Shown here one piece after another: positions 1-49,865 of a stretch of 64,000 bases of DNA (positions within the stretch are counted from its first letter, which is position 1; each line of letters starts with the position of its first letter). The stretch covers positions 1,116,001 to 1,180,000 of the forward strand of contig OZ237737.1 of NCBI GenBank assembly GCA_965178125.1, written 5' to 3'. The stretch comes from Bilabrum cf. latius. Its lineage: Eukaryota. Both the position numbers and the translations under genes were made by a program. Under the pieces are notes generated by a model that searched no databases, had not been told where the DNA came from, and worked only from the letters and a program-made list of their open reading frames with translations.

Positions 1-594
1 GCCTATTTGAGGGTATACAATCAAACGCCACAAAATACAACCAAGCAATCGCCAGATAATTTAGAGAGGGAGTATCTGGAGAACAAACAGAGTTCTGGAG
101 TGGATGCAGTTAGAAAAAGAATAAAGAAAAATGCAGGTGAACGTGCCAATGAGTAGCGGTTCAAAGTGGGCGATCAAGTAAGGGTTCGATTGCGATGGGG
201 ATCTAATGAGAAAAGGGGTGAAAACTGGTCTAAGGATGTGTATACTATAAGATAGGTGTTAAAACCGCGTATGCCGTGGAGTCCGTGGTCCTATTAGGTA
301 GAAGGATTGCCAACCAGATATTTTACAGAGGAATTGCAGAAGGTGGATGAGGTTGAAAATCCAATTACTTTGCCAGATTAGTATATTATTTCGAGTATTG
401 TGCGCCCTAGTGTGGTTAATGGGGAGCGTGGATTTGTGGTTCGATGGGTTGGATACAAGGTTCCAGAGTGGAACAGCTATGAAAACATGATCGAAGATGT
501 GCCCAAACTGGTTTAGGCATTTGAAAAGAAGCACAAAGTAGAATGGAAAAAGAATCCACGTACAAACAAATGGACGTTTACGTGGAAAAAGTAA
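1..594 (+). CDS. rve (retroviral-type) integrase, C-terminal part with chromo-like domain; 5'-partial
   Basis: Frame 1 is open except for five TAGs: YNQTPQNTTKQSP...*RFKVGDQVRV...ENWSKDVY...FVVRWVGY..PEWN...WTFTWKK-TAA; collinear with 14226-15431. Confidence 0.85.
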
Positions 595-3330: not shown

Positions 3331-3379
3331 TTATATTAGATTATAGGATTTTTTAAAAATCCTATAATCTAATATAAAT
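3329..3379. repeat. Perfect AT-rich palindrome, 25-bp arms
   Basis: ATTTATATTAGATTATAGGATTTTT-T-AAAAATCCTATAATCTAATATAAAT, overlapping the start codon of 2707-3330. Confidence 0.85.
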
Positions 3380-3765: not shown

Positions 3766-4431
3766 ATGAGATACCCACAGAAAGCACGAGAATATTTACA
3801 AAAACACTTTGGAAAAGGTTACAAATCACTTGTTTCGGAGTATGATATGAAGAAATGGATGCAAACCAATATTGGCACGGATTGGTGGCATGAGGGGAAG
3901 AAATCGGATAGCATAATCAGAGCATTTCATGCGGTGGTGAAGTAGCCGGAAGGCACATCACCACTTTGTGAATCTGGTGGAACTGCAGAACCTGATCAAG
4001 CACCAGCACCAGCACCAGCACCAGCACCAGCACCAGCACCAGCACCAGCACCACAAGAACCTAATTAGGTAACGCAACTGATGTTTGCAATGATGTAGAT
4101 GCAATAGAAATAGTATGATGCAATGGTGTAGATGCAGAAGGAGGATAAGAAGTAGCGTTCGGAAATGCTGAGCATTATGAAACACTTGCATAGTTTTGCA
4201 TAGCCTTATGCTTCTAAACCACGAATGCTAGGCACCGTAGATAGTGAAGGAGCACCAGCATCTGAATCTGGATCGGCACCAGCACCAGAACCTGAACCAG
4301 CACCTGAACCAGCACCTGAACCAGCACCAGCACCAGCACCAGCACCTGAACCAGCACCAGCACCTGAACCAGCACCTGCGTTGAAACAGCGAATTAAATT
4401 AAAATCAATGAAAGTGAAAAATGGAAAATGA
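3766..4431 (+). CDS. Hypothetical protein with AP/PE repeats and a Gln/Met-rich segment; N-terminus paralogous to that of 705-2621
   Basis: MRYPQKAREYLQKHFG...WMQTNIGTDWW; continuous through multiple TAGs (MM*MQ*K*YDAMV*MQ) to TGA at 4429-4431. Confidence 0.7.
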
Positions 4432-4720
4432 AAATGAGAATCCCTGTGATTTCTCAATGCAATATTAAATGAATTTTTGAACATCCCCCGCGTGGGGGAC
4501 CCCGCAGAATAATATGGAGACCCCCAAATTTCTCTCCTCTGCAAGAGGAATAGAACCCGAGATGTGAAACGTAGCAGTGTAACTCAGTGCGTAATTTTTA
4601 GGCAGTTGAAAATTTCACCTGCAAAAAAAATGATTTTTCAGCAACTTAAATTTCCACCCTCTACCCGTTTTATGGAAAGAATTACTTATAACAAAAGAAA
4701 AATGTACATAAAAAATACCC

Positions 4721-4791
4721 TACTCTCACACACCACATACCAGGGGGACCTCCAATTTGGAGGTCCCCCTGGTATGTGGTGTGTGAGAGTA
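4721..4791. repeat. Perfect palindrome (35-bp arms, 1-nt centre) at the right terminus of element A
   Basis: TACTCTCACACACCACATACCAGGGGGACCTCCAA-T-TTGGAGGTCCCCCTGGTATGTGGTGTGTGAGAGTA. Confidence 0.95.
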
Positions 4792-5742
4792 AATATGCGT
4801 CTACACACTAAGAACGCTGCACTCCAAGTTCCTCTCAGCACCAATTACGCCTACCCATGGGAAAAAACAATTCCTCATGAATTTCAGGGTAATACTGCTT
4901 TACTTGCTAATAGCGAAACCGTTGTCAGTATTCCCATCATCAGAGAAGACGTTGTTCCCGATATGTTTGTTCCTCATGTTGTGGTCAATCGTGGTGCTGA
5001 TGATTATGGTCCTGATATAACTCTACCTATTACTCACATAAGTTGCACCGTCGGCAATAAATTCAAACTTCTTGATGATCACAGCACTCGCGATCTTTAC
5101 GATTTAGCCGTTTCAAATGGCTACGTTGGTAGTTATGCCCAGTTTGCTGGTTTACTACTCAACCCCGCTGAAAGTACCCTTGCCAATTAGGTACTCGCCA
5201 ATTGGAGCATCTTACCTTTACGCCCCAGTTAGATGCCACTAGATGCCGAATTAATGAGTGGTGTCAAGAAAGAGTTTAGACTCACCAGCCTACAACTCAC
5301 CATTGCCAACCGCACAGCCAATGCAATCGCAGCCGGCGATTACACCATCCAAATCCCTTTCATGTATGGCGGATACATTGAATTTAAAAATGGACGCATT
5401 CAAGCCAAAGAGGTTGTTATTCCAGTAGCCAAAACACTCACCAGCGCTCCTGTGGTCTATCTTGAGGATGACAGCGAACATGCTATTCAAGGCGGACGCG
5501 GTGGACGCGGTTGGAAGAAATTCAAGAACTTCGTCAAGAAAGCTACACCATTTGTCCAAAAAGCCAGCAAATTTGTACGCAACCTACCAGGTGTAAACAA
5601 GGTCGCTGGTGATAGTACCGCTCTAGGACAGGTTATGAAAATGGCTGGTGCTGGTGTAAACCATGTTGGCGGTGGGGTTTAGATGGTTGGAGGTCAAGTG
5701 ATGAGTTCAAGCTAGGCAGATGCAATGGGAGGTTCTTACTAA
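4792..5742 (+). CDS. Virophage-type major capsid protein, C-terminal half (5' part separated by insertion of element A)
   Basis: One frame via TAGs at 5188, 5230, 5680 and 5713. LPITHISCTVGN..LL...STRDLYDLAVSNGYVGSYAQFAG resembles the second jelly-roll of virophage MCPs; Gly-rich/basic tail GGRGWKKFKNFVKKA. Confidence 0.7.
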
Positions 5743-5787: not shown

Positions 5788-7215
5788 ATGTTTGCTGGAA
5801 AGCGAAAAAAAGCCCGTAATTTAAACGAAGTCAGATAGTTGCAACACCTAGTCAAAGCCTCTGGGCAAGCCTATCAATCACCCAATGCCCGAACCACAAT
5901 AATCTCCAAACAAGGAAAATGGATGTATGTTCCCAGTTTAAGCGATAACAAACGAGCCGTCTATCGTAACGATAAAAATCAATATATTGTTGCTTTTCGA
6001 GGCACAGTTGTCAGCGATCCTGAGGATCTATTAGACGATGCTCGAATCATTAAAAACACACTTCCCAATGGAAATAGATTTCAACGAGAGAAAAAAAAGG
6101 TTGAGGAAATCAAACAACTTAGCAATGGACAAGTTGTGCTTACTGGACACTCATTAGGAGGTGCTTTAGCCAATTAGATTGGATAGCAATTAGGAATCGA
6201 AAGTGTGGGTTGGAATGCTGGAACAGCCCCTACCGCTCGAAACTTAGTTGGCAACACCATTCGACGATTTGCCACCCAAGGCAAAACCAAAAGTTACAAC
6301 GTTAGTAGCGATCCTATTTCTCTTGGAAATCCTTTTAGCAAACGCATCAATCGCAAAGCTGGTCTAGATCCACACAGTCTTGGAAACTTTGTAATTCAAG
6401 GCGGTAAAGCACAAACTGATCCCATTATTCGCAAATTCAACTTGTTTAACTTTGCTAAACCACTACTCAAAGTTGCCAATCTTTTAGAATTAGATAATAC
6501 CTCCAAACAATCCGTGATTGAACTTAAAGGTTCGCAAACCAATCCCGTTATTTCCTTGTACGCTAGTGATTACGATTTCTTTCAACAACTAACACAAAAA
6601 GATATTCCAATGTTTGTACCACACTTAATCCATCTAGTAGAATTATTGAGTTCCAAAAGTTCTCCCCTTCGACCAGTGGAACTTAAACTAGGTGGCAAAC
6701 ACTACAAACCCACAGTCAAAAATCTAAAACAGTTAGAACCCAGAATACAATCTATTATCAGCAAAGACCCTTTTGCCAAACTAGATTTAATCATGTTTGA
6801 TGGCAAATACTACCAAGAAATCACTGTGGTTTACCTATTCGAACCTCTTGCCAATCCCAAGGAAATCCAAACCCAACTACTAAACGATAGTCGGGAATAT
6901 CGCAAACAAGGAATGCGGTACAAAGCAAGTAAACGAGTGATTCAATCCAATAAAGGTACTCTCAAACAACGCCGAGCTGCCCTTAAAACACTCGAAAATC
7001 CTAAACTTGCACAAATCAATCACACCGCCAACCATTTAGAGGCGTTCTTACGTTTTCCAAACGCAAAGCGTACCTCGCTTCAATGGATAAAACAAGATTT
7101 ATCCAATGTACTCACTCGTAAACAACAAGCAGAGGTTAGCAAGTTACTCAATAAAGGAACTAAAGCAAACGTTAAACAAGTTATGGATTTATTAAAGCAA
7201 TGGAAATTAAGATAA
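5788..7215 (+). CDS. Class-3 lipase (alpha/beta hydrolase) fused to a possible nucleotidyltransferase-like domain
   Basis: IVAFRGT and TGHSLGGALA motifs; TAG read-through joins 5839-6177 to 6205-7215; second domain has KGS...YASDYD. Confidence 0.7.
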
Positions 7216-11140: not shown

Positions 11141-12151
11141 TTAAAACAAGAAGCACTTGCTTTGAGTGACCGCGTATCTATTAATCTTATCTATATAGAT
11201 CCATCGACTGGATTTAAACTAATCCTCTAAAAGATGAATCTGTTTTTTGCTTAAACTTAAGTATTTACATAGCATGAATTCGCGATCACGCTCGGGAGTC
11301 TATCTGTAAATAATATAACTCTAACACTCTCGATGCAACAAACGGGTTTTTCTGTAATCACTGGGAGAGTGCGTAACCCATATTACACTCGCTCCATGGG
11401 ATCTTCCTTTAACAAGTAAGTGTTCGGCTAAAAACATGGCTCTTGATTCTAGTTCCCCCTCGATATCATCAAACATCAACACACTTGGACGTTCTAGTAA
11501 TTTGTGCAATCCCGGTGTTAAAGTATATTTACCACCTCTTTTCATGGCAACTTTCATTCTATCCAAGGCTTTCTCACCCTCAATCCTTTGTTCTGGATCC
11601 ATGCCTTTCTTTGTATGTTTAAACTCAATTACTGCATCTCGATATAATCTTGCTGAATCGTCTGGAACAACCAGTTCATGAATCGGGACTTCTATCATTC
11701 CTAATTCTTTGAATCGAGATTCCTAGGGTTTTCCGTTTACTACTACAATCTACAAGTTTGGATTTAAGTTTCTCATTGTTTGCAATATCTCAATTCCAAG
11801 AGTCGTCTTGCCACTTCCAGACATTCCAAAGTTGTAAATACAACAACGAGGACTCTCTTTAGTCATCAAGGGGATGATCTTTCCACTCTAGTTTTTAAAT
11901 TTGTAGATTTTAAAACCCCTATCTCGTAACTCCTCCCAGTGCTTTGGTTGATTCTTGACGATTCTAGCCTTGCGTTCGCCGATCTTGTACCTTAGGTAAG
12001 CCTAATCTACTGTTTCTTCTTCTGAGTCTTCAGAATCGCTGTCGCTTACGTTTTCATAAACTTTCGGCATGAAATAAATCACCTTTCCATCTCCGTAAAG
12101 TGAATATGCTATTGGATTACTGTTTTCCTATCTCATGGTACTTAAACTCAT
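11141..12151 (-). CDS. A32/FtsK-HerA genome-packaging ATPase
   Basis: Walker A GMSGSGKTT, Walker B LMFDDIE, KGRSHG and WVTH; continuous only with TAG read-through. Confidence 0.85.
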
Positions 12152-14225: not shown

Positions 14226-15431
14226 ATGAATAGTATCACAGATAAATAGCGAAAAATACTCAACCACTTGTACTACGATAAAAAGAGTTTTCTTGGACGG
14301 GATCGCTTTTGGAAACTTGCTTTGGATTTCGGTGTAGATCTACCACGACGAACCGTCTACTCTTGGCTGAGTAATCAAGAGGTGTATCAAATGCAAAAAC
14401 CAACACGCCAAGCCAAAAGTATTAAATCTACTCGATCCAAAGCACCATTCAACAAACTACAAATAGATCTAGTTGATATGAGTAGTAGCACAACAGCAAG
14501 AGGAGCAAATTGGTTACTAACTGCGATTGATGCCTATACCCGAAAAGCATACGCTTTGCCAATGAAAAATAAAAATGAAAAGACTGTTCTTGATAGTTTA
14601 GATCTTTTGCTGGATGAACTACCCAAATTACCCAAATCCATCTAGAGCGATAACGGTTCAGAGTTTATCAACAAGAAATTTAAAGCCCGTTTAAAATCCT
14701 TGAAAATTAAACAGATTTTGAGTACTGCAGGAAAGCCTTAGACCAATGGACTCGTTGAAAGATTCAATGGCACGCTCAAAAGATTTATTAAAAGCGATTT
14801 ACTGAGCACAGGCGAAAATGATTGGGATGTTAACTTGCCATTATATCTCAAAGCATACAATTCCACTCCACAAACTACCACGGGTAAAGCACCTGATAAA
14901 TTGGTTGAGGAATGGAAACAATCAAATATGAAAGAGGCTCCTGAAATCAAACAAGCATCCAAGCAAGATTTGGCAACCCAGCAATTCAAGATTGGCGATC
15001 AGGTACGAATTAAATTAGTCTAGAACCAAAACTAGAAACGTGCGGAAAATTGGTCCAAGGATTTATACCAGGTTGCCGAGGTGTTTAAGCCACGATAGCC
15101 TTGGAGTCCTTTCCAGTATCAAGTTAAGGATAGCCAGGGAGGCTTACTTAAAACCAAGTATGGCAACGAGGATTTGCAACAAATCAATGCGGTGGAAAAC
15201 AAGAGTAAATTAGCGGAGCGATTTGAACTTAGTAGCATTACACGTCCCAGTGTCCGAGATGGCGAATAGGGATACATTGTTAGATACAAAGGATACTCTA
15301 AACCGGAATGGAATAGCCTGAAAAATTTGGAATTGGATGTACCAAAAATGGTACGGCTATTTGATAAGCGACACAATGTGGTTTGGAAAAAAGACAAGAA
15401 AGACAAATGGACTTTCTCATGGAAAAAATAA
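14226..15431 (+). CDS. rve (DDE) integrase with C-terminal chromo-like domain, Polinton/mavirus type
   Basis: LQIDLVDM, AIDAYTRK, I*SDNGSEF, KP*TNGLVERFNGTLK, YNSTP, FKIGDQVRI, YIVRYKGY. Confidence 0.92.
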
Positions 15432-15517
15432 CAGTTAAATTTCATTGATCATATTATATGAGTTATGAATAGTATTTGAAGTATAAAAACACACGTATTA
15501 GCACGTTGCCATAGTAC

Positions 15518-16528
15518 ATGAGTTATCTTAAAAGTATATATAATGATGATTTATATAGAATCACTAACAACACACCAAAGTTAAAAGTTGGTACCGATTG
15601 TAGTGGCATAGATGCACCAATTCATTCCTTAAAAATCATGAATGTACCTTTTCAATATGAATTTGCATCAGATATAGATAAATCAGCTGAAGCCAGTATT
15701 AAATGCAACCACCTACCGCGCATATTTTATGATAATATAATGACACGTGATCATTCAAAATTACCCAAACTAGATTTATATTGTGCCGGATTTCCATGCC
15801 AATCATTTTCAACATTGGGCAAACGTCAGGGATTTGACGATAATAAAAACAGAGGAACTGTGTTTTTTCACTGTTACGAAACCATAAAACAAACTCAACC
15901 ACAAATGTTTATTCTAGAAAACGTTAAAGGACTGTTAAGCCATGATAAAGGCAAAACTTTTAAAACAATCATGGATCATCTTTCAGCATTAAAAGGATAC
16001 TATATTCATCACTAGGTTTACAACACACTGGATTATGGATTGCCGCAATCCAGAGATCGCGTTTACATAGTGGGTACAAAAGGATCATTTGTGCCGCCCG
16101 AGCCCATAAAATTACCCATAGGAATTAAGGAAATACTTGAACAAAATGTTAATGATCCATATTATTTTCAAATCACACCACACAAGAACCAATTAATCAA
16201 AGATTCTTTGTCCAATGGATTGATTGATAACATCAAGAATGATTGGGTAATGAATTTAAATGTATCATCATACAAAAGAACAGGTGCTTAGCTGGGAATA
16301 TCACCATGTTTACTTGCTGGAGGTGGTGGTAATTGCACATTTTTTATTACATCACTCATGCGCAAACTAACACCCCTAGAATATCTAAGATTGCAGGGAT
16401 TTCCTCCAGATTTTAAAATTTGCGTTAGTAGAGCACAGACATATAAACAGGTTGGAAATGCAATGTCGGTTAATGTGGTGTGTTTTATTCTAAAAAGCAT
16501 GCTGATGGGATTGAAAGGGGGAAAATGA
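15518..16528 (+). CDS. DNA (cytosine-5) methyltransferase
   Basis: DCSGI, AGFPCQSFS, ENVKGL, PQSRDRVYIVG, RKLTPLEYLRLQGFP and QVGNAM; TAGs at 16013 and 16289. Confidence 0.92.
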
Positions 16529-16616
16529 CGCGCTGTTAAAAGAACTGGATATCATTTATGCATTAAATCATTTACATAAAAAATGATTTAAGGCTAATTT
16601 ACATTAATTAGAATAT

Positions 16617-16940
16617 ATGGAATACAGTCAACTCCTTCCTTTTAAAATCATGTTTGATAAGAAATCCGATCGATTATTGCTTGGATGTGTGGAATTTCCA
16701 ATCGAAGAAATAGAAAGAATAGAACTATCTCGCATTAGCAAAAATGCCATCGATTTCCACCTGCCTTTACTTAAAAAAGAACTCGAGCTAATGGATATTG
16801 ATCCTAATCACTCTGATCTAAAATACAAAGCAGTTAAGCCTAGCACTGGTGGTCCATCCCTTTATCAATCACTCAATACCGAAAACAAAATTGAAGTGAT
16901 AAACCAAATCTTAGATACATTAAATCTAATTTCTACTTAA
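16617..16940 (+). CDS. Hypothetical protein
   Basis: Open frame preceded by the recurring AAATGATTTAAG motif. Confidence 0.55.
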   Translation: MEYSQLLPFKIMFDKKSDRLLLGCVEFPIEEIERIELSRISKNAIDFHLPLLKKELELMDIDPNHSDLKYKAVKPSTGGPSLYQSLNTENKIEVINQILDTLNLIST

Positions 16941-17101
16941 AGAAATATCTCAATATACTTTGTGCGATGAATCTTAAAAACGTTTCCTCCTTGTCATTCG
17001 AAATTTGAATTAGTTTTCATCGTACTAGTATAGGAAATACCATGGAAATACCTGTTTGTTAATCCATTGATTCTAAGTATTTACTCATTAAATTCATCAA
17101 T

Positions 17102-17172
17102 GGGATTATGTTGTAACGGTAGCATACTAGCCTCATTAGCTAGAGATTCAGGTTCGATTCCTGATAATCCAC
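17102..17172 (+). tRNA. tRNA-like gene, anticodon CAT (Met), with some non-canonical positions
   Basis: GGATTA/TAATCC acceptor stem, CTAGC-CTCATTA-GCTAG anticodon arm, TCAGG-TTCGATT-CCTGA T arm; mismatches at 1:72 and 10:25, pyrimidine at 37. Confidence 0.7.
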
Positions 17173-17197
17173 ATCCAAAGAAAACTAACAGCAATTA

Positions 17198-17290
17198 ATT
17201 TGCGTTCCACTCTGCAAATCTCGGTTCGATTCCGAGGTGATACCTAGTATCACTAGTCACAGCAGCGAGCAATGTTTTCTGCAAAAACAT
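17198..17290 (+). ncRNA. Second tRNA-like structure with rearranged arm order
   Basis: ATTTGC/GCAAAT hairpin, perfect T arm CTCGG-TTCGATT-CCGAG, then GTGATAC-CTA-GTATCAC. Confidence 0.4.
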
Positions 17291-17333
17291 CATTTGTTTC
17301 TGGGTTTCTTATTGTAAGAAACTCAAACTCAAA

Positions 17334-17930
17334 TTAACTAGCATTTTGTGTATTTCTTTTCACGAACACTGGTTTAATTTTACCTTTAACACCATTTTTG
17401 TACCATGTTTGTGTTCCATGAAAATTAATAACTGCTGGACCATCATCTCTGTGAAGTTTGCCATTTATGAACCATTTTTTAGATACATTACCTTGATGAT
17501 TTATAGTTTCTGCTGGTAGATCACCGTCTCTGTGACGTTTACCATTTTTGTACCATGTTTTAGTTGTACGATGCAGTAGTATCCATTTTTCAATAACTGC
17601 TGGACCATTTTCTCTGTGAAGTTTGCCATACTTATGCCACATCGTTGTGTCACGCCATATCGTGTTATTCCACCTAATTGATGGCAAATCATCAATTGAA
17701 TGTAACTTCCCCCTTAATATAAATATATAATTTGAACCCCAATGCAATCTTACAGATTGGCTATCAGTTCTTAGAATTGGTTGAGTTGCTGAATTAACTT
17801 GTCTACAAACTGGACACTTGGTTGTATCCAAAGAATTATGGCACTCATTACAAAACGTGCCATCTTTACAACATCCATTATGAACATATTTCCAATCATT
17901 TATATCCTATAAACAAATACAACATTGCAT
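17334..17930 (-). CDS. RING-like zinc finger + WYKNG/HRDGD repeat protein
   Basis: MQCCICL*D...GCC...FCNEC...KCPVCR followed by the repeats. Confidence 0.75.
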
Positions 17931-17952
17931 TATAATTAATGTTTGTATTTTT

Positions 17953-18333
17953 TTATACTGATTCTTGTTGTCTTGGTGCTGTTGATCCAATAGTTATTAT
18001 GTTTGGTTGATTTGGAACATTTGTCATCGGTCTTGGTCCTGAGGATTCTAATTGTTGAAGTCGTTCTTTCAACAACTCAATTTCTGGTCGTATTTCTTCA
18101 TTAATAGCACGAACACTAAACATTGACTACATAATGCTCATACAAATATATAAATATGAAAAAAAACCAAATATTCCAATACCTACCTTTACTGTCGTTG
18201 TGTATTCATCTTGTCCATAAAAATACATGAACAAACTTATGGCTGTTATAGCCGATAATCCTGTACATATTTCACTGTGACATCCATATACTTTTTTTAT
18301 TTTTATTTCTATTTCTGATTCTGATGTTCTCAT
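17953..18333 (-). CDS. Two-TM membrane protein with coiled-coil tail
   Basis: Two hydrophobic stretches; reads through TAG 18127 to TAA. Confidence 0.55.
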
Positions 18334-18388
18334 ATATTATAATATATCATTTTAATCTTAAATCATTTATTTAAAAAATGATTTATTA

Positions 18389-18943
18389 TTAATTCCAATC
18401 ATCCCGTTCATCAGTGGTTAAGCACCAATCTACCACTCTATTGGGATGCCATGCTTTTGCCATTAATTCCTGTTTAATCTATCTAGTTTGCATTCGAGTT
18501 TGATAACCACGTTGCTTGTTTAACAGTTCGTTGTAGGGTTTCCATTTGGAAATTAACAACTATTCAGAGTATATTTTTTGCATTATTAACCTATAAATTC
18601 TATCATTCAAATACTCATCATCACACAAAAACACAGGATCAAACAGTAAGGTACAACTGTGACTATCGTCAAATTCTAATATAGCATAAACATTCATTGT
18701 GTTAAAAGATATAGTCAGCTTAGTTATTTCTTCCATATCAAAAGTATATAATATAGCATATTGCATTCTTGGGTTTTCTAAGCATTTAGCAAATTTATTT
18801 GCTGATTCTTTCGTATCTATAAGTTCGAAACCATGTTCATACCACTCTCGATTCAATAACTGTTGCTTTTTTCGCTTTTTTCGCTCCTTTCGCTCTAAGT
18901 AACGAGCACGTTTCGACTATATGCGATGCCAATTTTTATCCAT
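18389..18943 (-). CDS. Hypothetical protein with C-terminal KQELMAKAWHPNRV motif of the kind seen in giant-virus proteins
   Basis: Continuous with three TAGs read through. Confidence 0.6.
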
Positions 18944-18998
18944 TTAATATTGTATAACATTTTAATCTTAAATCATTTTAGCGATAAATGATTTATTA

Positions 18999-19298
18999 TT
19001 AATCTTGAATAGGCACAAACACGTTTTGTTTATGTAAAGGCAACCAATCGATTGCTTTGGGTAAGCTTGCTAAATACTCAGGTCGCTATTCAACCTTGTA
19101 ATTAGTGATTGAATGAGGGTATTTGCCCAACTTAAGTTGGTTTAAAATCAATCGAGATACAGGATGTTGGTTTAGCACATCTGGATACTGTTGCTCTAGC
19201 AATTCCATAGCCTTATTGATATTGTAAACCAAATATGTATGCTAATCGCCTTGTAAATCCGTTACTGTTAAAATTATGTTATGAGTTCCTTTCGCCAT
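18999..19298 (-). CDS. Hypothetical protein, paralog of 22932-23216
   Basis: HNIILTVTDLQGD*HTY versus HNIVLKVIDLEGDQFMY. Confidence 0.65.
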
Positions 19299-19363
19299 TA
19301 TATATATAATAAATCAAATTAATCTTAAATCATTTAAGATTAAAATGATATCCAGTTGTTCAG

Positions 19364-19946: not shown

Positions 19947-20191
19947 GTTTTGTGTCTCACTTTTTACTTGGTTTAGTACGGATTTAATACGGAAGTTCTG
20001 TGTTCCATGTTTTTTCCACACTCTCTCTCAATAATTCATTTTTTACATTTCTCTCGAATTTCAAAATTATCATAATATCTGTGATTGTCAGAAAAAAGAA
20101 GGAAACATGGAACATTTCTTTTAATTTCTTTTAAATTATGGAACATAACTTAGAACAAACTTAGAACAACTCAAAAAAACTGAGAACATAC
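19947..20191 (-). repeat. ~250-bp dispersed repeat, copy 1 (inverted relative to copies 2 and 3)
   Basis: Near-identical reverse complement of 23224-23470 and 24279-24520. Confidence 0.9.
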
Positions 20192-20197
20192 TTATAA

Positions 20198-22498
20198 TTA
20201 AACCAAACACTCTTTATTCATCTTAATCTAGATCTTAATTCTTTCTGATGGTTGTACTATATCATCCTATGGATCCTCTACGCCTCCACTGGATTCCTCC
20301 TCAATTGCCATCAAACCCACATACACATAGGTAAGGTTTCCTGCTACTCTTGCTCGTTTCTTTGTAATACCCTAATTCTTTAACCATCGGGTTAGTTTAT
20401 TGGCAGACATGCCACATTTACTAAACTTTTCTTTTACTGTATTTACCAACTCTTGTTCGCTTTCCACCTGCTTGAAACATTTGGTAAACACCACGTATGG
20501 ATCACCCATCTAATCCGCCGTTAAATCATTCATCTCCTGCTAGAACTCTTTGGGTGGTACGAGATCTGCTCCACTGGATTCCTAGTATTGTTCAAATATT
20601 GCCCATGCCATTGCATCACCCAACCATGGTGTTTGATTGATCCATTGTTTAATATTTGGATCTCCTGCTTTAATGGTTTTGGTTGGGTTTAAGGAGGAAT
20701 CAAACTTAAAGGGAAATAGTACGATTCTGCCAGTATCCATAGCATCTGGAGGATTACTGGTGGGAATCTAATTAAAATTCATGAAACTTATACAGTTGTT
20801 GGAAACAGTAACCTCATTTTCTCTCATTTTACGGCACTAGAAACTATCACCACCACTAGCAATCACATTCTTTATAATGTTACCACTTAGCACAGCAGTT
20901 TTTTTGCTATCTCTGCTTTCGTTGGTAAATGCAATTCGTGCCTTGTGCATATTGGCAGTTAATACAAATCGTAAATCCATTGCCTAATCGGTAGAATTGA
21001 AATCTTTAGTAATCGGAGGATTGTACTGGGTTACATACTCTGCAAACGCTTTTTTGATTGCCTCCTATATTGTGCCTTTGCCACTATTTCTAGCACCCGT
21101 ACATAACCCAAAAAATTTATCACTAACACATCCTGAGATTGCTCTTGCAAACAATTTTAAGGTGTAATCTCTCTATTCATCGTTGCCAAACACATTCAAA
21201 ATACGTTCCTACAACTCGACGAGATGGGGGTGATCCCATCCTTGGTTTTCATACTATTCAAACAGTTTAACTGGAGCAGGGCGATTGATTCCTACAAGGC
21301 TGGTGGTGTTGCCTCTGGGTTGCCATTTGCGTTCGCTCATGTTCCAAACCTGATCGGAGAAAAAAACCAATCCGCGAGATTGATGATTGATGTTGGTTAA
21401 CCAAGTTGAACCCTAATCCTCTGCAAATGCTTTGATCATTTCGGCGATACGTTTAGCACCGCTTGCGTTGCGTGAAAAAGAGTTATCGTTTTTCCGTAAA
21501 TCTAAGTGGGCGATCATTCTAATTAAGGGGCTAACGCCTTCTTCCCAGATTCCTTTGTTGTTTAAGATATAGAAACTATCGCCTGAACGAACAAACTGTT
21601 TATTGTAATAATCTAAGAATATCTATGCACCATCCGTATCATCATCAATGGATTGCCCAATCACTGATTGGTTTTTCACAAGTTCCTCAGGATCTAGTGA
21701 ATGCAGAGGTTTCTCTACAATTTTCACCTTGTATCCCGTTTCTTGTTCAATAAACTATTCCATTTCGGGGATTTTAGAAGCACTCATATTACCCAATAAA
21801 CATCCATCATGAATTAAAGCGCCCACCTCAACTTGGTTTTGAGTGCACCACTTATACATTGCCATCAATGCATGGCGCTCTAAACTCTAAACAATTGTAG
21901 AACAATAGTGTCGGTATTTATCATGGCGTTTTTTGCTGGTTTTGCAACTATCAAGTTCCTTTTGCCATTTTTCTTGTTCTGAGATAAGTTTTTTCATGAT
22001 GGGATCAAGTTCGGATTTAAGTTTATGGAAAAACTGGGGAGCATCAGATTCTAATCCACCACCATTTAACAATCTCAAAACTTGGTTTTTGGTTGGTTTC
22101 CACTTTTTCCTAAGGAGTTGTACATTGGCACAATACAAATCCAATTGAGGGCATTCAATCTCACGTTTCGATAAATACTGGGAAAGCAAGTGGGGGTGGC
22201 AGTTTTGAATATCATAATCGTGGTAGATACCTTGAGCCAGTAATCCCCTAATTGGAGTGTACATTTGGGTGTAACAAAAACCAGTGTTGAATCTGCCTCC
22301 AAACTCATTATCATCGGTTGTGTATACCTATCGAATGGTGGCGATTGAAGGGTTATCACTCAAAGGTTTTGCACGTTTAATCCATTTGAGAAATGGTTTA
22401 AACTATCCTTCGGCACTACCAAATGATGCTCTACTGCTTTTGAGTTGTTTGGCATAATCCAGATTAATCTTGCTATCAATAGTTACTTTTGTGGTCAT
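20198..22498 (-). CDS. PolA-like (TVpol) primase-polymerase fused to D5/SF3 helicase
   Basis: GGRF, DYDIQNCHP, LIHDG; Walker A GARNSGKGT, IAFTNES, IASGGD; 767 codons interrupted only by TAG as far as read. Confidence 0.82.
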
Positions 22499-22567
22499 CT
22501 TATATTATATAACATATAAAATTCTATAATTCATTTTTTTTTAAAAACGAATTATGATTCAGTAATA

Positions 22568-22855
22568 TTAAAAGTATTGTTGATGAAGATCGAAAAGGTA
22601 TTTTTGTTGTTTAGGGGAAAGGCGTTTAGGGGATTGGGAGATACTCTGGATAAACTAGCGATGCCGATCGGGAAGGGAGTTGCTTTGGAGTAAATCTTGG
22701 ATGCATTGGTTTTGTTTGGCGAGTAAGTTAGCAGTTTTGGGATTGGGGAGCCATTTTAGCCATTTTCCACAATCGGCACAAACACGTTTACCATAGTGAA
22801 TACTATTTTCTAAGATAATCGAGGTTTGAGAGGTGTGAGTGCATTTATTTATCAT
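22568..22855 (-). CDS. Small Zn-ribbon protein
   Basis: CTH...HYGKRVCADCGKWLKWLP; extends past TAG 22655. Confidence 0.65.
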
Positions 22856-22931
22856 ATATTATAGGGTTAGAAATAATTCTTAAACTATTTTTTGGAAAAA
22901 TGAATTAAAAAATACAGGATAGATTATAGAA

Positions 22932-23216
22932 ATGAGTAAACATAATATTGTATTGAAAGTGATAGATTTAGAAGGCGACCAGTTTATGTATTAGGTTAGG
23001 AATTGTAATATTGTGCCAGAACTGTTGAAAGAATTGCACTCGGAACTGTATAAAAAACATTCAATCAGTAGAATTACTGTAAACCTGCTGAAAAAAGGAA
23101 CTTACAAAGTAAAAGATAGTAGTGAAGGTGTCTCAAAACATTACAAAGTAGAACCAGTATCGCCGGATTTATTGCCGATGCGAAAACCATGGAAATGGTT
23201 AAAGATTAGTAGTTAA
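22932..23216 (+). CDS. Hypothetical protein, paralog of 18999-19298
   Basis: ATG 22932, one TAG, in frame with ORF 23013-23216. Confidence 0.65.
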
Positions 23217-23223
23217 GTTTATT

Positions 23224-23485
23224 GTATGTTCTCAGTTTTTTTTGAGTTGTTCTAAGTTTGTTCTAAGTTATGTTCCATAATTTAAAAGAAATTAAAAGAA
23301 ATGTTCCATGTTTCCATGTTTTCTCTGACAACCACAGATTTTATGATAAATTTGAAATTCGAGAGAAATGTGAAAAATGAAATAATGAGAGAGATTGTGA
23401 AAAAAACATGGAACACAGAACTTCCGTATTAAATCCGTACTAAACCAAGTAAAAAAGTGAGACACAAAATGTGGAACTCTTTTAA
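23224..23485 (+). repeat. ~250-bp dispersed repeat, copy 2
   Basis: TGTTCTCAGTTTTTTT...GTGAGACACAAAATGTGGAACTCTTTTAA. Confidence 0.9.
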
Positions 23486-24226
23486 TTAAAAGAGAGCAAT
23501 ATCGATAACGGTTTGCATTAGTACTTTGGTCAAGGCAGGAGGTATGGTATACAGGACTTCAGTGGGTGTTTGAGTGTGCATTCCAACAATCTACCGCATC
23601 ATTTGCCACATGATTTTTTGAGATCGATAACCTTTTGATGGTCCACTAGCGATTGAGTAATGGTGCTTTAGGTTACCTTTGGTGGTGATTGATGAATGTG
23701 GACAATGATCGCTTTTACAGCATACTTTTAGCTTTGGCAGGAGTTGATCGATAAGATTGGCACTACCCCAGAATCTAGTTTTCTTGGCATAGATGTAGCC
23801 GTACATACAGTAACAAGCATCAACGTATGGTATGCCAGCAACCACATCACGTGTCTTTAAACAACCTGTAGAGGGGTTTTCCATGGTCCAAGCCGAAGGT
23901 TTGTAAAAATCAATTATGTCCAACACTCGCTACACCATCTTATCTGATTCTTTCCGGTTGGCTTCTAGATTGCTCTTATCCCGTACCATTCTTTTACCCA
24001 TACTATAATAGTGGCAAACTGGGGATGCGTGTATAAAATCAAAGTATCCCACAGGGAACGCTTGTTTGTAATCCCATTGCATGATATCAGTGCAGATGGT
24101 GGGTTTATATTTTTGTTCGATATCTAGTGAGACAACCTCGACTCTATTACCAAGTAGTTTGTGTAGTGCTTTGCTGATTGACTTTGTGCCACAAAACAAT
24201 TCCAAAACTCGAAGTTTCGGTTTCAT
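23486..24226 (-). CDS. Short cytosine-C5 methyltransferase-like protein
   Basis: LRVLELFCGTKS, SLDI, IHASPVC, MENP, YCMYG..YAKKTRFW; TAGs at 23930 and 23591. Confidence 0.75.
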
Positions 24227-24278
24227 TATAGTTAGTCCAAAGATTAAAATGATTTTGTTTTGAGTATATTATAAGTGT

Positions 24279-24535
24279 GTTCTCAGTTTTTTTGAGTTGT
24301 TCTAAGTTTGTTCTAAGTTATGTTCCATAATTTAAAAGAAATTAAAAGAAATGTTCCATGTTTCCTTCTTTTTTCTGACAACCACAGATATTATGATAAA
24401 TTTGAAAATTCGAGAGAAATGTGAAAAATGAAATATTGAGAGAGATTGTGAAAAAAACATGGAACACAGAACTTCCGTATTAAATCCGTACTAAACCAAA
24501 TAAAAAGTGAGACACAAAATGTGGAACTCTTTTAA
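24279..24535 (+). repeat. ~250-bp dispersed repeat, copy 3
   Basis: Direct repeat of copy 2. Confidence 0.9.
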
Positions 24536-25764
24536 ATTTCAAGTAAATCCATGATTGTTTTGTATTGATCTCTAGATAACCCTTTGTAATTGATTTGTAG
24601 GTTGTACAACCCATCTTGTTTAGATAAGAGAACCGAAGGTTCAGGTGGAGTAGGTTTGTTAGGAGATTGAGTTTTCATTTTTTCATCGCTTTCAATCTCG
24701 ATCACAGGTAGAGTGGATTGTTTGTTATGTTTAGGTTTAATAGGCTTAAGTATAGGTTCAGGCGATTTTATTTCCACTATAGGTAGTGAGATCTGCTTGG
24801 GTTTGATCTTGATCTTGGGTTTAGGTTTGGGCGATTTCAATCCCAGTACAGGTAGATCGCATCCATTTAGATGCTCCTATTCCTCACTGGTTCTGTACTC
24901 CTAATAGTAGGTTTTTTGGGTTTTCTTAGAATGCCCCATGGCACTGCACAGTGCTTTGCGTTGATCGAGTGATAAACCACGTGCCATCTGGGAACTCCAG
25001 ATCTTGCGGATATCTTGGGGTGAAACGTAGCACTCCAGCCACTTGAGGCTGTAGGGTTTTACAAGCCGACTGGTGAAATTCTTTGAACCACTGCCCCACA
25101 AGGGTGTATCATCGGATAGTAGACTGGCAATCTCCACTACACGATCGTTGATGGGCATATCTCGCTCCTAGGATGTGCCAATGACCACCCCCTTGTCGCT
25201 GCCCACCACCAGCACCTTGCGATCGAGATCGATTCGATTGGGAAAAGATGGATCTGTGCTGATAACTAATTGGCACAGAGCAGATGGTCTGATTGGAGAT
25301 ATGTAGTAGAGTATGGTTAGAAACAAGAGTGCCACCTGCTCGGGCTGCTTGAGCCCAGTGGCATCCACAGCACCTAACCGCTCTTGAGCCTGCTAAAGGG
25401 TGAGAGGCAGATCCTTTTTGGGTTGCTCTTCGCGATCTGATTGAAACTTGAGCGCCCATTCGCCTTTGGTTTTGCATAGCAGGTGAAAGCGCTCGCTCTG
25501 GCAGCCTTGGCATCCGAGGTAGGCTGTTAGGTGGTGCAGGGCGTAGTAGCATCGCATCGAAGCATAGGTGCTGTTGAGTTGTTTCATGGCGGTATCTATT
25601 TGTTCTTGGGATAGAGGGGCATCGGGGTTGCATCCAATCTTTTGGAGTAGGGAGCGGAGAACGGTGTTGCACTCGCGATGGTAGTTGCCCAAGGTTTTGG
25701 GATTGTGGTACTGTGTGGCTAGCCATGCTTTGATTTCTTGTACTAGTGTGTTAGTAGAACTCAT
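24532..25764 (-). CDS. Tyrosine recombinase-family protein
   Basis: Four ORF-track pieces in one frame joined by TAGs; SPIRP (Arg I), PQDIRKIW (Arg II), MGHSKKTQKTYY (His/Tyr). Confidence 0.75.
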
Positions 25765-25799: not shown

Positions 25800-26472
25800 T
25801 ATGAAATGTAAAAATGTAAAGGTTGCAGATTGCACTTGTAGTTGTGAGAAATTTGCGAGGGGTATCACTCGTTAAGGAAAGAGGTTAGAGAGCAGGGTGC
25901 AACACAATAGGTGGATAGTATAGTAAATGATATAATGGTCTGGGTAGAAGTTTAATTGTTGCTCTTGATTGGCAAGGAGAGGCACGAGGAAATGGTGAGG
26001 CACCTCCGATCTACAAAGGAAAGTGCTCCGGTCTACATAGGAACGGAGCAATGCCTCACGGTTGATGCCTCACGACCAATTCAGGGGCGAATGGATCAAA
26101 GCATTAGATCCTTGAACATTATACACATGTGTAAGAGATCAAACCATACTAGTGCTAAGCAGGAAAGGGAGGGCATGGCGGAAAGATCATAAATCAGGGG
26201 TGCAAAGAGAGGTATCGAGGACCTGAACCACGCGCTGCGCACGTGCGCTCCGCGACCGCCCCTCGCCCGTTTGAAACCCCTAGAGAAGTAAATTATATCC
26301 ATTAAGGAATTGCGGAATCCACAGCAACTCGCAGGAGAATCTGTTCGCGCCCAGCAACACTCTCTCCCGATCCATCTCTGCACGTACAGAATAACCCATT
26401 CAGAAATTTCGACTCTTGTACAATTCATGGAAAGTAATTACTTTTAACAAAAGTAAAATCCCCTATACTCTA

Positions 26473-26530
26473 CTCTCGCAGTCCATATGAAACCCGTAGT
26501 ATACTACGGGTTTCATATGGACTGCGAGAG
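26473..26530. repeat. Perfect 58-bp palindrome at the right terminus of element B
   Basis: CTCTCGCAGTCCATATGAAACCCGTAGTA|TACTACGGGTTTCATATGGACTGCGAGAG, followed directly by host coding sequence. Confidence 0.95.
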
Positions 26531-26531
26531 C

Positions 26532-29500
26532 CGGTTTGGTGGGCGAGGGTAGAAAGACAGCAATTGCGGCGGGCTGTGCCCTGCCGGGTTCTACTGCCCC
26601 CTGCAGACTACCGACTCGTCTGGCTCCCGGCCTCCGAAGCAGTGTGGTGGCAGCAGCTACTACTGCCCTGAAGGCAGCGGCAGTCGCAAGTGAGACTAAA
26701 TGTGCAAAGCATGCTGCACCTTGACTCTTAGTCTAGGCGTCCATTGCAATTCAATAATTCTGCTGGATTGTATGCCTATCTGCTACTACCAAGTATCGAC
26801 CTCGATCCCTTGCACTTGCTTGCAGCACGGTGTCCACCGGATACTACACGGTTGGCGGGCCCGACTCGCGGTTCCGGTCGAGCCAGCTCATCTGCGACAA
26901 GGGCCACTACTGCTCCAGCGGGGTCAAGTACCAGTGTCCTGCGGGCAAGTACGGCAGCTCCACCCGGCTGTCCTCCAACAACTGCAACGGCGGGTGCACG
27001 GCCGGGTACTTCTGTCCCGCTGGTTCCATCAGCAGCAGACAGGAGACTTGTGGGTCTGCACAGTACTATTGCCCGGCCGGCACCACCTCCCGTCGCACGG
27101 TCCAGAGCGGGTACTACAGCACCCCCGAGAGCGTGGAGCCCTGGAGGCGCACGGGACAGGCGCGCTGCTCCTCGTCTGAGGTGTGCGTGGAGGGCGAGAG
27201 GAGGCCTCGGCTTGAGTGGACCACCGGGTGCAACCAGGCCACGGGCACCGGCAGCGCCACCGTGAATGAGAGGTCCACTGCCGGCACGAACCTGGGCAAG
27301 CTAGCTCAGGCCCGCAGCAACGTGGGTCGCAGCATTTCCTACACAATGACCTCCTAGGCACCCGCTTCCGGGGTGTCTGGGTGCCCGACCCGGACCCCAT
27401 TCAGCGTGTCGAGCGACGGCACGTTCTCCGTCAAGAGCGGATCTGCCATGCTGGACTACGAGAAATGCCCGAGGTACACCGTCGGCATGCGCGTGACGGA
27501 TGCGCAGGTGACAATCACGTGCTCGCTGACTGTGAACCTGCGCGACCGCAATGACCCGCCTGTGCTGGAGAGCAGCCCAGTGCGATCAGTGGAGGAGGGC
27601 TCCGAGATCGACACCCCCGTGGGCGACAAGATCGGAGCGTCGGACGAGGACCGATTCCAGGAGCTACTATTCTCCATCGTGTCGGGCAACGACGACGGCT
27701 TCTTTCGGATCAGTCGGTGCTCTGGGCTGATCAGTGTGGCCAAAGAGGGCCTGGACTTCGAGACGGTGAATCGATACTCGCTGGTGGTCAGGGTGGTGGA
27801 CGACGGGAATCCCGAGCTGTCTGCCCAGACCACGGTGACGATCAACATCATCAACCGCAACGAGCCGCCCACGTGGGTGCGCACCAACTACGTGTTCAGC
27901 GCCATCGAGACGTGCTCGGACGGCGACGGCCTATCCTCCACGGACAAGGGCGTGCAGGCCACTGACGCTGATGCCGGCACCACGATCACGTACAGCATTT
28001 CGCGGAATGACCGCAGCGCGTTTGCCATCGGCAGCTCGACAGGCACCATAACGGTGGCCGACTGCTCCCAACTCAACTACGAGATCCAGGGCGAGCGCAC
28101 CTTTTCGATCGAGGTGGAGGCGAACGACGGAGAGATCGGCATCAAGCAGTCCGTCACCATCACGGCACTCAATGGAAACGAGGCGCCGGTGTTCACGCCC
28201 ATCACGCTCATCGGCCTCAAGATCAGCGAGGGCGCCAACTAGGGAGGCGAGGTGGGCACCGTGTCTGCTGACGACGAAGACGACCCAAGCACGCTGACAT
28301 ACTCGATTTCGGGTGGCAGTCAGGCCAGCTTTTTCGCGATTGATTCTTCCACGGGGCGGATCACCGTCTCGAGCGCGGGAGCGGTGGATGGTGCAGGCAC
28401 CCAGGGCCTGGACTTCGAGACGGCAGCATCGCACGAGATCGACATCACGGTGCAGGACTCTGGGCTGGACAACGACAACTCGAACCGTCTGTCCACGACC
28501 ACCAGCGTGACCATTGCGGTGACCGCGGTGAACGAGGATCCAGTGCTGATGCCGCAGGGCGTCACCGTGCACGAGACGCTGGGCGTGGGCGATGTAGTGG
28601 GTGCTGCTGTGAATTTCACGGACCCTGACAACGAGGGCCGCTTCCTGACCACTACCCCCAAGCAGCAGTCGCACACCCTGCGCGTGCTGAGCATTGATGC
28701 AGGGGGTTTTGTGATGGCGGATCAGCCGTTTCTGGTAGACTAGGACACTCGCACTCTTCGGCTGGGCCAAGAGCTGGACTTCGAGACATCTGCCTACCAC
28801 CGCGTTACCCTCGAGCTTGAGGACAGCCAGGGAGCCAAGGTGTCTGCACCCTTCAACATCACGGTGCTGAACGTGAACGAGGCTCCATCGGTCACGGAGG
28901 ATTAGTCCTATAACGTGGATGAGAACGACGCTCCCCCTGTCACCCTTGGCACCGTGGTGGGCACTGATCCTGACGGGGCATCCGATACGTCCGGCCTCAC
29001 CTTCGAGATCGACACGGATGCCAACAACACCCAGGCCTCTGACTTTGCAATCAGCAGCTCCGGTGTGCTGACGCTGCAGACAAACGCCGCATCTGGTGGC
29101 ACGGTGCCGGTCGGAGGGTACGACTTTGAGAGCAGCGGGGTGTTCAAGTCGGTGTCCATCATCGCCACGGATCCGCAGGGAGCCAAGAGTAACCCGGTCC
29201 TCGTCACAGTCATCGTGGATGACGTGAACGAGAACCCGTGGTTGCCATACCACAACATCGGAGTGCGAGAGCAGACCGCGGTTGAGACGGAGCTGGCCCC
29301 TCGCTTGCAGGGAGAAGACGTTGACAACAGATACAACGTGCCTCACCGGTCCAACTTGAACTACACGATCGTCACCAAGCATGTTGACCTGACCTGGATC
29401 TCGCTCCGTCCTGACGGCACGGTGTACCTGAGCGCAGAAGCCCCCAGCTTCACTTCCAGTGTGCTCAAGGCTTGGAACATGACAGTGCGAGTCACGGATC

Positions 29501-43247: not shown

Positions 43248-44987
43248 ATGGAGCAAGCAGCAGGTGCATGCTCAGGGGAGGTGATCGATCTCGTCAGCGG
43301 CGACTCAAGCGACAGCGACGCTGGTGGAAGCGATGTCAAAGTTTCCGACCGTCGCATAAGCACGATGGCTGCATCGCTATCATTGACTAGCAGTCGCTAG
43401 TGGGGCAGGCGAGAGGCAGGTGGGAAAGGTAGGGCACGAGATCGAGCCAGCGATCGAGCCAAAGCTGTTCCCACGTCCATCGTGGCGTCGGGACACTCCA
43501 GCAGCAGCGCAATGTTGCCGCAAGAAGTGCAATCTTCAATGCAGTCAACCTCAGGGGTAGATGCAAGCGGCGGCACCGATACCTCTTTGGGCCAGAAGCG
43601 AGACAGGCAGGCAGAGGCGAGGTCAGCAGCAGACAGCTATAGCGGATCGAGGGGAAAGAGACGGCGTGGGCAGGCAGGCAAAATCGGGGTAGGACATCGT
43701 TGCAACGTGTGCGGGCAGACATTCCGACAGGCAGGCGATCTCAGGACGCACATGAGGACTGTGCATCTGGGCGAGCGCAAGCACGAGTGCAGTGTGTGCG
43801 GCAAGTCATTCGGACAGGCAGGCTCACTCAGGACGCACATGAGGACTGTGCATCTGGGCGAGCGCAAGCACGAGTGCAGTGTGTGCGGCAAGTCATTCGG
43901 ACAGGCAGGCTCACTCAGGACGCACATGTCCACTGTGCATCTTGGGATGCGCAAGCACGAGTGCAGTGTGTGCGGCAAGTCATTCGGTGCGGCAAGCAAT
44001 CTCAGGAGGCACATGAGGACTGTGCATCTGGGCGAGCGCAAGCACGAGTGCAGTGTGTGCGGCAAGTCATTCGGACAGGCAGGCGATCTCAGGACGCACA
44101 TGAGGACTGTGCACCTGGGCGAGCGCAAGCACGAGTGCAGTGTGTGCGGCAAGTCATTCGGACAGGCAGGCTCACTCAGGACGCACATGAGGACTGTGCA
44201 CCTGGGCGAGCGCAAGCACGAGTGCAGTGTGTGCGGCAAGTCATTCGGACAGGCAGGCTCACTCAGGACGCACATGTCCACTGTGCATCTTGGGATGCGC
44301 AAGCACGAGTGCAGTGTGTGCGGCAAGTCATTCGGTGCGGCAAGCAATCTCAGGAGGCACATGAGGACTGTGCATCTGGGCGAGCGCAAGCACGAGTGCA
44401 GTGTGTGCGGCAAGTCATTCGGACAGGCAGGCGATCTCAGGACGCACATGAGGACTGTGCATCTGGGCGAGCGCAAGCACGAGTGCAGTGTGTGCGGGCA
44501 GACATTCGGGGAGGCAAGCAATCTCAGGAGGCACGTGAGGACTGTGCATCTGGGCGAGCGCAAGCACGAGTGCAGTGTGTGCGGCAAGTCATTCGGACAG
44601 GCAGGCTCACTCAGGACGCACATGTCCACTGTGCATCTTGGGATGCGCAAGCACGAGTGCAGTGTGTGCGGCAAGTCATTCGGACAGGCAGGCGATCTCA
44701 GGACGCACATGAGGACTGTGCATCTGGGCGAGCGCAAGCACGAGTGCAGTGTGTGCGGCAAGTCATTCGGACAGGCAGGCTCACTCAGGAGGCACATGTC
44801 CACTGTGCATCTGGGCGAGCGCAAGCACGAGTGCAGTGTGTGCGGCAAGTCATTCGGGCGGGCAGGCTCACTCAGGACGCACATGAGGACTGTGCATCTG
44901 GGCGAGCGAAAGCACGAGTGCAGTGTGTGCGGCAAGTCATTCGGGGAGGCAGGCAGTCTCAGGAGGCACGCGCGAGGTTGCCTTTGA
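43248..44987 (+). CDS. C2H2 zinc-finger array protein, 15 fingers
   Basis: 29-aa (87-bp) repeats HECSVCGKSFGxAxxLRxHMRTVHLGERK; ATG 43248 with TAG 43398 read through; start uncertain. Confidence 0.85.
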
Positions 44988-45314
44988 TTCGCTTGTATTC
45001 CGCATCGAGTGGCTCGGTGCTTGATATTGGATTGTGCACGCTGCATGAATAAAGGGTGATGCTTAGGAAGTCAGGAGCAGATATCCTGCACGCAGACTTC
45101 TTGTTCCATCATGCTCACTTAGGTACGATGCTACGTACTCATGCCTGGCAGGACCTTGACACTCGACTGCTGTTATATGTACTCGGACATCAGGATTGAA
45201 GCGACGGGGAGCAGAGGTGAGACGGAAGACGGGGCGGGCGCAGGAGGACAGGAGGTGGAGAAGAAGAAGGGGACACCGGCACAGGCGACGACAGTGCGGC
45301 GTCAACAGGGAGAA

Positions 45315-49538: not shown

Positions 49539-49865
49539 TTCGCTTGTATTCCGCATCGAGTGGCTCGGTGCTTGATATTGGATTGTGCACGCTGCATGAA
49601 TAAAGGGTGATGCTTAGGAAATCAGGAGAAGATATCCTGCACGCAGACTTCTTGTTCCATCATGCTCACTTAGGTACGATGCTACGTACTCATGCCTGGC
49701 AGGACCTTGACACTCGACTGCTGTTATATGTACTCGGACATCAGGATTGAAGCGACGGGGAGCAGAGGTGAGACGGAAGACGGGGCGGGCGCAGGAGGAC
49801 AGGAGGTGGAGAAGAAGAAGGGGACACCGGCACAGGCGACGACAGTGCGGTGTCAACAGGGAGTA

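Follow-up and report, generated by a model that had tools for sequence, protein, structure and literature searches.

Mavirus, the EMALE virophages and the Polintons carry the protein-primed polymerase pPolB and have protein-primed ends. How the ends of linear genomes are copied in virophages and PLVs without such a polymerase has been addressed in one 2026 preprint, in which hairpin priming was proposed from palindromes alone. That study, of July 2026, describes terminal palindromes adjoining the target-site duplications (TSDs) of non-pPolB virophage and PLV subtypes in Halocafeteria seosinensis and puts hairpin priming forward as a proposal (bioRxiv 10.64898/2026.07.28.741278). Vaccinia virus shows random flip/flop at both ends, given by cruciform resolution (PMC8956199), and in AAV flip and flop arise from terminal resolution (PMC11575299).

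Here, we describe two virophages, A and B, integrated in the genome of Bilabrum cf. latius. Their terminal palindromes are of the kind just described in Halocafeteria; what is new is the evidence from isomers. As far as the main text of the preprint presents the Halocafeteria elements, they resemble A and B in having a palindrome in the terminal inverted repeat (TIR) next to the TSD (16/16 A and B ends) and a non-pPolB replicase. The Halocafeteria host has a genome of 39 Mb with 47% GC, whereas the present one has 48.6 Mb, ~60% GC and TAG as a sense codon. The word 'flip' is absent from that main text, and so is any mention of isomers, of solo palindromes or of where a nick falls; the model given there, excision followed by fold-back, would by our reasoning not invert the tip on its own. 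No report of flip/flop ends or solo palindromes in virophages or PLVs was found in the openly accessible papers and preprint main texts searched. Virophage morphogenesis genes, an rve integrase, TIRs and a 5-6-bp TSD are shared with mavirus, the EMALE virophages and Polintons, and a V21-type protein with mavirus, which gave its best structural match; those elements carry pPolB, whereas A and B have none.

As read from integrated copies and contigs, the likeness to poxvirus and AAV hairpin ends extends in the former to imperfect terminal palindromes in two complementary forms, in equal numbers and scrambled between the ends, and to a conserved element, the CRS, beside the hairpin, comparable in position to a subterminal block of A and B (PMC8956199). 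With AAV and the parvoviruses it extends to flip and flop that are independent at the two ends, a hairpin primer and a nick at the palindrome border (PMC11575299). Poxviruses have giant non-integrating genomes and a dedicated Holliday-junction resolvase, whereas A and B integrate with a 5-bp TSD and no resolvase was identified in them; AAV has an ssDNA genome, a Rep nickase and T-shaped ends, whereas double jelly-roll virophage genes and simple stems are seen here and no Rep was found. The telRL site of the N15/phaeovirus type, as described in PMC13236599, is likewise a 56-bp palindrome, the precursor of closed ends, and a recombinase-like gene is present here too, but the telRL site is internal and cut at its centre, whereas the present palindromes are terminal, doubled and may be bulged.

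Two nested virophages and their genes

The window, that is, the whole stretch of 64,000 nucleotides analysed (G000:C3:1116001-1180000), belongs to a host assembly of 48.6 Mb in 111 contigs. GC content per kb is 30-48% from base 1 to ~26,500 and a host-like 52-68% beyond. The window is occupied by the right part of virophage B, with a second virophage, A, nested in the capsid gene of B. In the host DNA, four tandem units of ~4.4 kb, with an 87-bp repeat array in each, lie at 43600-61000, flanked by a 2.5-kb inverted repeat (37540-40065/61475-64000).

Frameshift decay was ruled out as the reason for the short open reading frames of the virophages, since in-frame TAG codons caused all nine of the breaks checked. 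Coding cover rose from 33% to 81% once TAG was counted as sense. A glutamine in a motif of the A integrase aligns with TAG in B, and TAG was present in 7 of 15 rows of host chaperonin matches, the one TAG examined being at a variable position. Most virophage families, like the host chaperonin genes, read TAG as sense, most likely for glutamine (window 1-26500; L072-L081); the integrase and capsid matches of a further family, C, are free of in-frame TAG. No suppressor tRNA was found in the virophages, and the literature search returned no paper on TAG recoding together with virophages. Genes for tRNA-Met and tRNA-Pro are located within virophages (L054:678-748, 994-1064; L063:7622-7692; L066:1918-1990; L069:7085-7157).

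Read with TAG as sense, A and B are intact-looking virophages with genes for a major capsid protein (MCP) and an rve integrase and with protease-, penton- and ATPase-like genes; capsid protein, protease, penton and ATPase are markers of Lavidaviridae-like virophages. The preliminary description had set their ends against those of classical Polintons, and Polinton features are present (rve integrase, TIRs, 5-bp TSD); the elements are virophages and not Polinton-like viruses, as the MCPs of 573-575 aa match PF22031 over the cut-off in both A (E 3.8e-15) and B (E 1.7e-11). Open reading frames of fitting size, order and motifs, with no specific Pfam match, are candidates for the cysteine maturation protease, penton and packaging ATPase; the protease and ATPase candidates are common to all nine elements compared. 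The window begins in the 3' part of the A integrase (1..594, plus strand; Pfam rve with E 1.7e-19 on the C20 copy). In B, we identified the 3' part of the MCP gene interrupted by A (4789..5742, plus strand; PF22031), a gene that joins a lipase-like domain to a nucleotidyltransferase-fold domain of the V21/L544 type (5788..7215, plus strand; fold taken from the family C homologue), a putative packaging ATPase (11141..12151, minus strand; P-loop motif and context, with a weak P-loop match in Pfam) and the rve integrase (14226..15431, plus strand; PF00665, E 1.4e-16). The gene at 24532..25764 (minus strand), which is tyrosine-recombinase-like by motif, has no match in Pfam or PHROG; two copies of A, C20 and C2, contain a GC-richer version of it. 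Searches of viral_contigs with the B and family C integrases gave no confirmed relatives.

No pPolB had been seen in the window, and none of the 28 PF03175 matches in the genome falls in a copy of A, B, C or another palindrome-bearing family, F. The replicases of A, B and C are SF3-type helicase fusions. Of the label 'PolA-like primase-helicase' first given to the B gene at 20198..22498 (minus strand), the helicase part was borne out (D5/SF3-type), but the PolA part is given by motif, with a single-sequence model at pLDDT 37, and by a weak lead from the family C homologue (Atlas lead 0.81; PF00476 on 16% of members); TV-Pol, which the N-terminus resembles by motif, is a PolA-like primase-polymerase in which the palm and fingers are of PolA type and are joined to a D5-like helicase (PMC2579912). 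Nor does the label hold for the C25 copy of B, which like family F has a Prim-Pol and an SF2/origin-binding helicase and has palindrome ends of the same kind. Copies of B with integrases 98% identical carry three different replicases (window 20198-22498; L065:5125-7671; L064:237-3146), which argues that the replication module was swapped and the end kept.

Several other features were observed in these elements. Two minus-strand genes (705-2759 and 7599-8732) encode a 2OG-Fe(II) oxygenase fused to an FkbM-type methyltransferase, the first with a Tet/JBP match, and together with C5 DNA methyltransferases at 15458-16528 and 23486-24226 they constitute a base-modification kit in a virophage. GC-rich stretches (50-60%) within some A and B copies (L058:3000-8400; L061; L070-L071) are candidates for inserted mobile DNA or exchange. 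AT-rich intergenic hairpins and inverted repeats of 120-220 bp between genes (window 16540-19360, 19948-24519 and 3329-3379) are possibly transcription-end hairpins or gene-swap borders.

Terminal palindromes and target-site duplications

The two inverted repeats of the preliminary description are present. Their arms measure 29 nt at 26473-26501/26502-26530, where they meet without a loop, and 35 nt at 4721-4755/4757-4791, where a 1-nt loop separates them; complementarity is 100% in both cases. Folded as ssDNA they reach z = -15 (B) and -14 (A), and for neither did any of 200 shuffles fold as well. Their lengths of 58 bp and 71 nt are real, but the element-encoded part is 56 bp in B (26474..26529, even, no loop, ending GAGA-3') and 65 nt in A (4724..4788, unpaired central base 4756). 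The borders, which were set by comparing the ends of all A and B copies found with the two window ends, were trimmed because the extra bases belong to the 5-bp TSDs: the target duplications GCCGG (26530..26534, plus strand) and GTAAA (4789..4793, plus strand, in the B capsid gene) open with G26530 and with GTA at 4789-4791, respectively, and the pairing of these bases is due to chance. Similarly, the shared ends originally given as (TA)CTCTC and GAGAG contain the true termini 5'-TCTC...GAGA-3', with CTAC just inside the borders of A and B, but the base that follows outward is G at no more than 6 of the 16 ends. Retroviral ends are CA-3'; A and B differ in ending GA-3', whereas C and F keep CA-3'.

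The palindrome at the virus/host junction is the terminus of B: the other copy of GCCGG is located just outside the left end (G000:C3:1089237), and an empty target in a host paralogue (L009) holds it once, which confirms the junction. Outside the TSD follows the rest of the cysteine-rich repeat gene interrupted by B (26535..27200 as far as read, plus strand). The palindrome ascribed to an A/B junction is also a terminus, but that of the right end of A nested in the B capsid gene, and GTAAA is single in two uninterrupted B copies (L062 and L068). In total, we found five copies of B (C3, C5, C7, C9 and C25), with the palindrome at 10/10 ends, and three of A (C2, C3 and C20), with the palindrome at both ends of each. 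Across these eight copies, left ends included, it lies exactly at the boundary in 16/16 ends, and an exact 5-bp duplication stands directly outside it in 8/8. All lie in TIRs, which in most copies measure 301-364 bp and in the C25 copy reach 627 bp; the right TIRs in the window comprise 26227..26529 in B (303 bp, 99.7% identical to the left one) and 4425..4788 in A (364 bp, 98.6%). The palindromes are thus element-encoded, of fixed length and flush with the TSD.

Relative to the other B subfamily, the palindrome of the C25 copy carries four mirrored substitution pairs. Symmetry is therefore kept while the sequence differs, as originally noted, but the selection on structure read from this need not follow, since hairpin copying or mismatch repair makes mirrored substitutions itself. 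In data from other studies, a contig of run X5 (study P2) passes from the host flank into the left B palindrome as far as its centre, and run X7 (study P3) contains a diverged B end and an empty site; runs X1 and X4, which may be the source sample, were left out of the independent support. The B palindrome arm had 0 matches in metagenome_contigs.

Both palindromes are preceded by a shared motif, which was confirmed to start at 4672 in A (4672-4701) and 26427 in B (26427-26458). It is part of a 58-column block common to the A and B repeats (4648..4703 and 26404..26459, plus strand) that scored 51; the best of 2000 shuffles scored 31. The exact motif pattern has 13 matches in the genome, 13/13 at element ends, and a control pattern has 0. 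We consider the block a candidate protein-binding or resolution site. It was not detected in the repeats of families F, D and E and is marginal in C (12/500 shuffles, against A). A role of the motif as gene promoter was rejected, as elsewhere in the window it has only matches with three mismatches (4 vs 1.1 expected). The motif matched 110 times in viral_contigs; 2 of the 80 sequences fetched have a hairpin of 16-nt arms, taken as chance.

Flip and flop isomers

Flip/flop variants exist in two families, at the central base in A and as a bulged palindrome in F, which like the other families was examined from among the 48 virophage-MCP matches of the genome. The unpaired centre of A (4756) occurs in both orientations, 3:3 in a count of six ends and one base only; the C3 copy is mixed, and the C20 and C2 copies are each uniform and opposite to one another. 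These ends are otherwise identical over 300 bp, save two private differences at one end. The B palindrome is perfectly symmetric and shows no readable flip/flop, so the argument for hairpins in B draws on A and F.

The F tip is a bulged 101-nt palindrome, TG...CA. We found 28 F ends, 26 of them intact, and these are exact mirrors in 12 flip and 14 flop forms (binomial p 0.85). Ten copies are complete, all with a 5-bp TSD (10/10), and divide into 3 flip/flip, 4 mixed and 3 flop/flop (p 0.82 vs 1:2:1). Eight F ends identical over 1 kb show the isomers at 4:4, and in the copies C2a and C38 the 1-kb repeats are identical at both ends and the tips opposite. When sites were tested against the isomer in a four-gamete test, 17 of 29 informative ones showed all four combinations, one of them 3 bases inside the palindrome border. 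No half-corrected palindrome was present among the 26 intact ends; the remaining two of the 28 have lost part of the outer arm. Two F ends have an outer flank in common and may be one event. Asymmetric tips thus occur as two exact mirror isomers at ~1:1, independently at both ends. Contigs of other runs break at palindrome centres and cannot distinguish flip from flop.

Families with and without pPolB

Family C has palindromes of 67-70 nt at the single end found in each of four copies. As a control, both ends of four pPolB elements (two D, one E and one on C12), out of ~20 such loci in the genome, were examined, and no palindrome was present at the eight tips; the D tips folded at z -0.2 and the E tips at z 1.3. 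In the host genome, pPolB families begin with G-runs or AGTAG. The C12 element (G000:C12:907311-939362) starts AGTAG, has a 6-bp flanking repeat and contains an imperfect 51-nt hairpin ~10 bases inside the tip; a 3.7-kb insertion splits its left repeat. Among the families examined in the host genome, the tip palindrome goes with absence of pPolB. The two groups differ also in their minor-capsid cluster, so that this correlation reflects few independent events and is a weak test. An AT-rich element on C14 showed no palindrome; a host inverted duplication of ~9 kb, 99% identical, adjoins it (G000:C14:1109324-1118554; L117-L119).

Discussion

Integrated copies are snapshots of single genome ends, and those described here show the 1:1, end-independent pattern that marks hairpin telomeres. 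Because the tips invert faster than they acquire point mutations, at 1:1 and independently at each end, as in vaccinia virus and AAV, they read as unfolded hairpins. Boundary position, TSDs and flip/flop support, at the sequence level, the reading as opened hairpin telomeres or fold-back primers with which the preliminary description had ended, and the palindromes are in our judgement probably hairpin tips, now unfolded, of linear genomes from virophages without a protein-primed polymerase. With the isomers, the hairpin proposal becomes a model that can be tested and that predicts where the nick falls.

The strands of the free genome, a linear duplex, would fold back at both of its ends. The primase/polymerase-helicase would replicate it into TIR-palindrome-TIR junctions, head to head, and cutting these at the border of the palindrome would regenerate the ends and invert the tip about every second time. 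This border corresponds to GAGA/GTAG in A and B and to CA/NN in C and F. Most economically, a nick after GAGA on each strand, at the base of a cruciform, would leave a fold-back 3'-OH that could act as primer for strand-displacement synthesis. Alternatively, the rve integrase could join this end to host DNA with a 5-bp stagger; gap repair by the host would then copy through the hairpin and leave the opened palindrome as seen. An AAV-like variant, with the nick on the other strand, copying outward and blunt palindromic ends joined unprocessed, would fit equally well. By our reasoning, a single-junction circle alone would always give mixed ends, which does not fit F, and excision with simple fold-back alone would keep one orientation and does not fit either.

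The strongest of the rival explanations, though an unlikely one, is that the palindromes are ordinary dsDNA binding, origin or attachment sites whose centres invert by template switching or arm recombination, in the chromosome or during copying. Centre inversions are known for inverted repeats, and integrated palindromes do rearrange, as the partial loss of an outer arm at 2/28 F ends shows; against this, inversion outpaces point mutation (the ends identical over 1 kb are at 4:4, and C2a and C38 have opposite tips), the ratio is 1:1, and partly corrected forms were not seen. It seems less probable still that, by the N15/phaeovirus route, the tyrosine recombinase is a telomere resolvase that cuts the palindrome centre and seals the hairpins. 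A recombinase-like gene is indeed present in A, B and C, the N15 site also measures 56 bp, and this route has been proposed for Ectocarpus viruses (PMC13236599) and a like idea raised for an entomopoxvirus-associated PLV (PMC11296320). A cut at the centre would, as we reason, make fully paired stems and could not keep the bulged F tips; moreover, F has no tblastn match to the recombinases of A, B and C, and no match to telomere-resolvase families was obtained.

That the palindromes are instead by-products of insertion or break repair (P-nucleotide-like, or from accidental annealing) and not viral is very improbable, even though accidental annealing is the alternative named in the Halocafeteria preprint (bioRxiv 10.64898/2026.07.28.741278). 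Length and sequence are the same from one independent insertion to the next, the TSDs outside being intact, and the B subfamilies differ by the four mirrored substitution pairs; copy-to-copy identity thus largely refutes this explanation. An assembly or chimera artefact has the least to recommend it, with a probability that we consider negligible. Palindromes can trouble sequencing and assembly, and short-read contigs break at the palindrome centres, but the 16 ends, which agree with one another, are spread over seven contigs and have distinct TSDs, a paralogous site is empty, the X5 contig enters the B palindrome from the host flank, and X7 holds a diverged B end and an empty site.

As to the enzyme that would nick the hairpin, blastp comparison (E 1e-4, open reading frames of at least 100 aa) revealed none of resolvase or Rep-nickase type that all of A, B, C and F share. 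The nucleotidyltransferase-fold gene present in exactly the four palindrome families was considered as an end-processing enzyme and rejected, because it belongs to the V21/L544 family, which also occurs in mavirus, its best structural match, and is not specific. Since the joining point of the rve integrase is the palindrome border, this integrase is our first guess, with a chance somewhat short of even. Going further, a single integrase cut at the border of the terminal hairpin could suffice for a whole lineage of virophages, the same fold-back 3'-OH being primer, resolution product (flip/flop) and host-joined end; we hold this as a doubtful, though possible, extension. For the enzyme, the 'viral end' to be gripped would be the hairpin stem, with the genome hanging on as flank, and GA-3' would be accepted besides CA-3'. 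The model implies an integrase acting on hairpin or palindromic ends, and we know of no retroviral-type integrase that works on such ends.

If the integrase is the nickase, solo-palindrome scars analogous to solo LTRs would be expected, as a palindrome also repeats itself in direct orientation. Host DNA contains two isolated A-like palindromes (82-88% identity), one with a 4-bp flanking repeat (C30:320216-320276, L039) and one with flanks that match at 4/5 (C11:1135083-1135142, L038). Because the tips are direct as well as inverted repeats, recombination between them could leave a solo palindrome, and the two loci are suggestive of elements lost in this way; a search for an empty site of the C30 palindrome did not find one. 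A decayed F-like half was observed at C29:434674. In addition, a dispersed repeat of 69-70 nt has TCTCGCA...TGCGAGA borders like the B tip, with a non-palindromic interior and GC-rich surroundings, and is located in G000 at C4:1360963, C5:1453231, C8:614138, C11:385450, C14:440190, C24:92432, C31:671104 and C33:126680.
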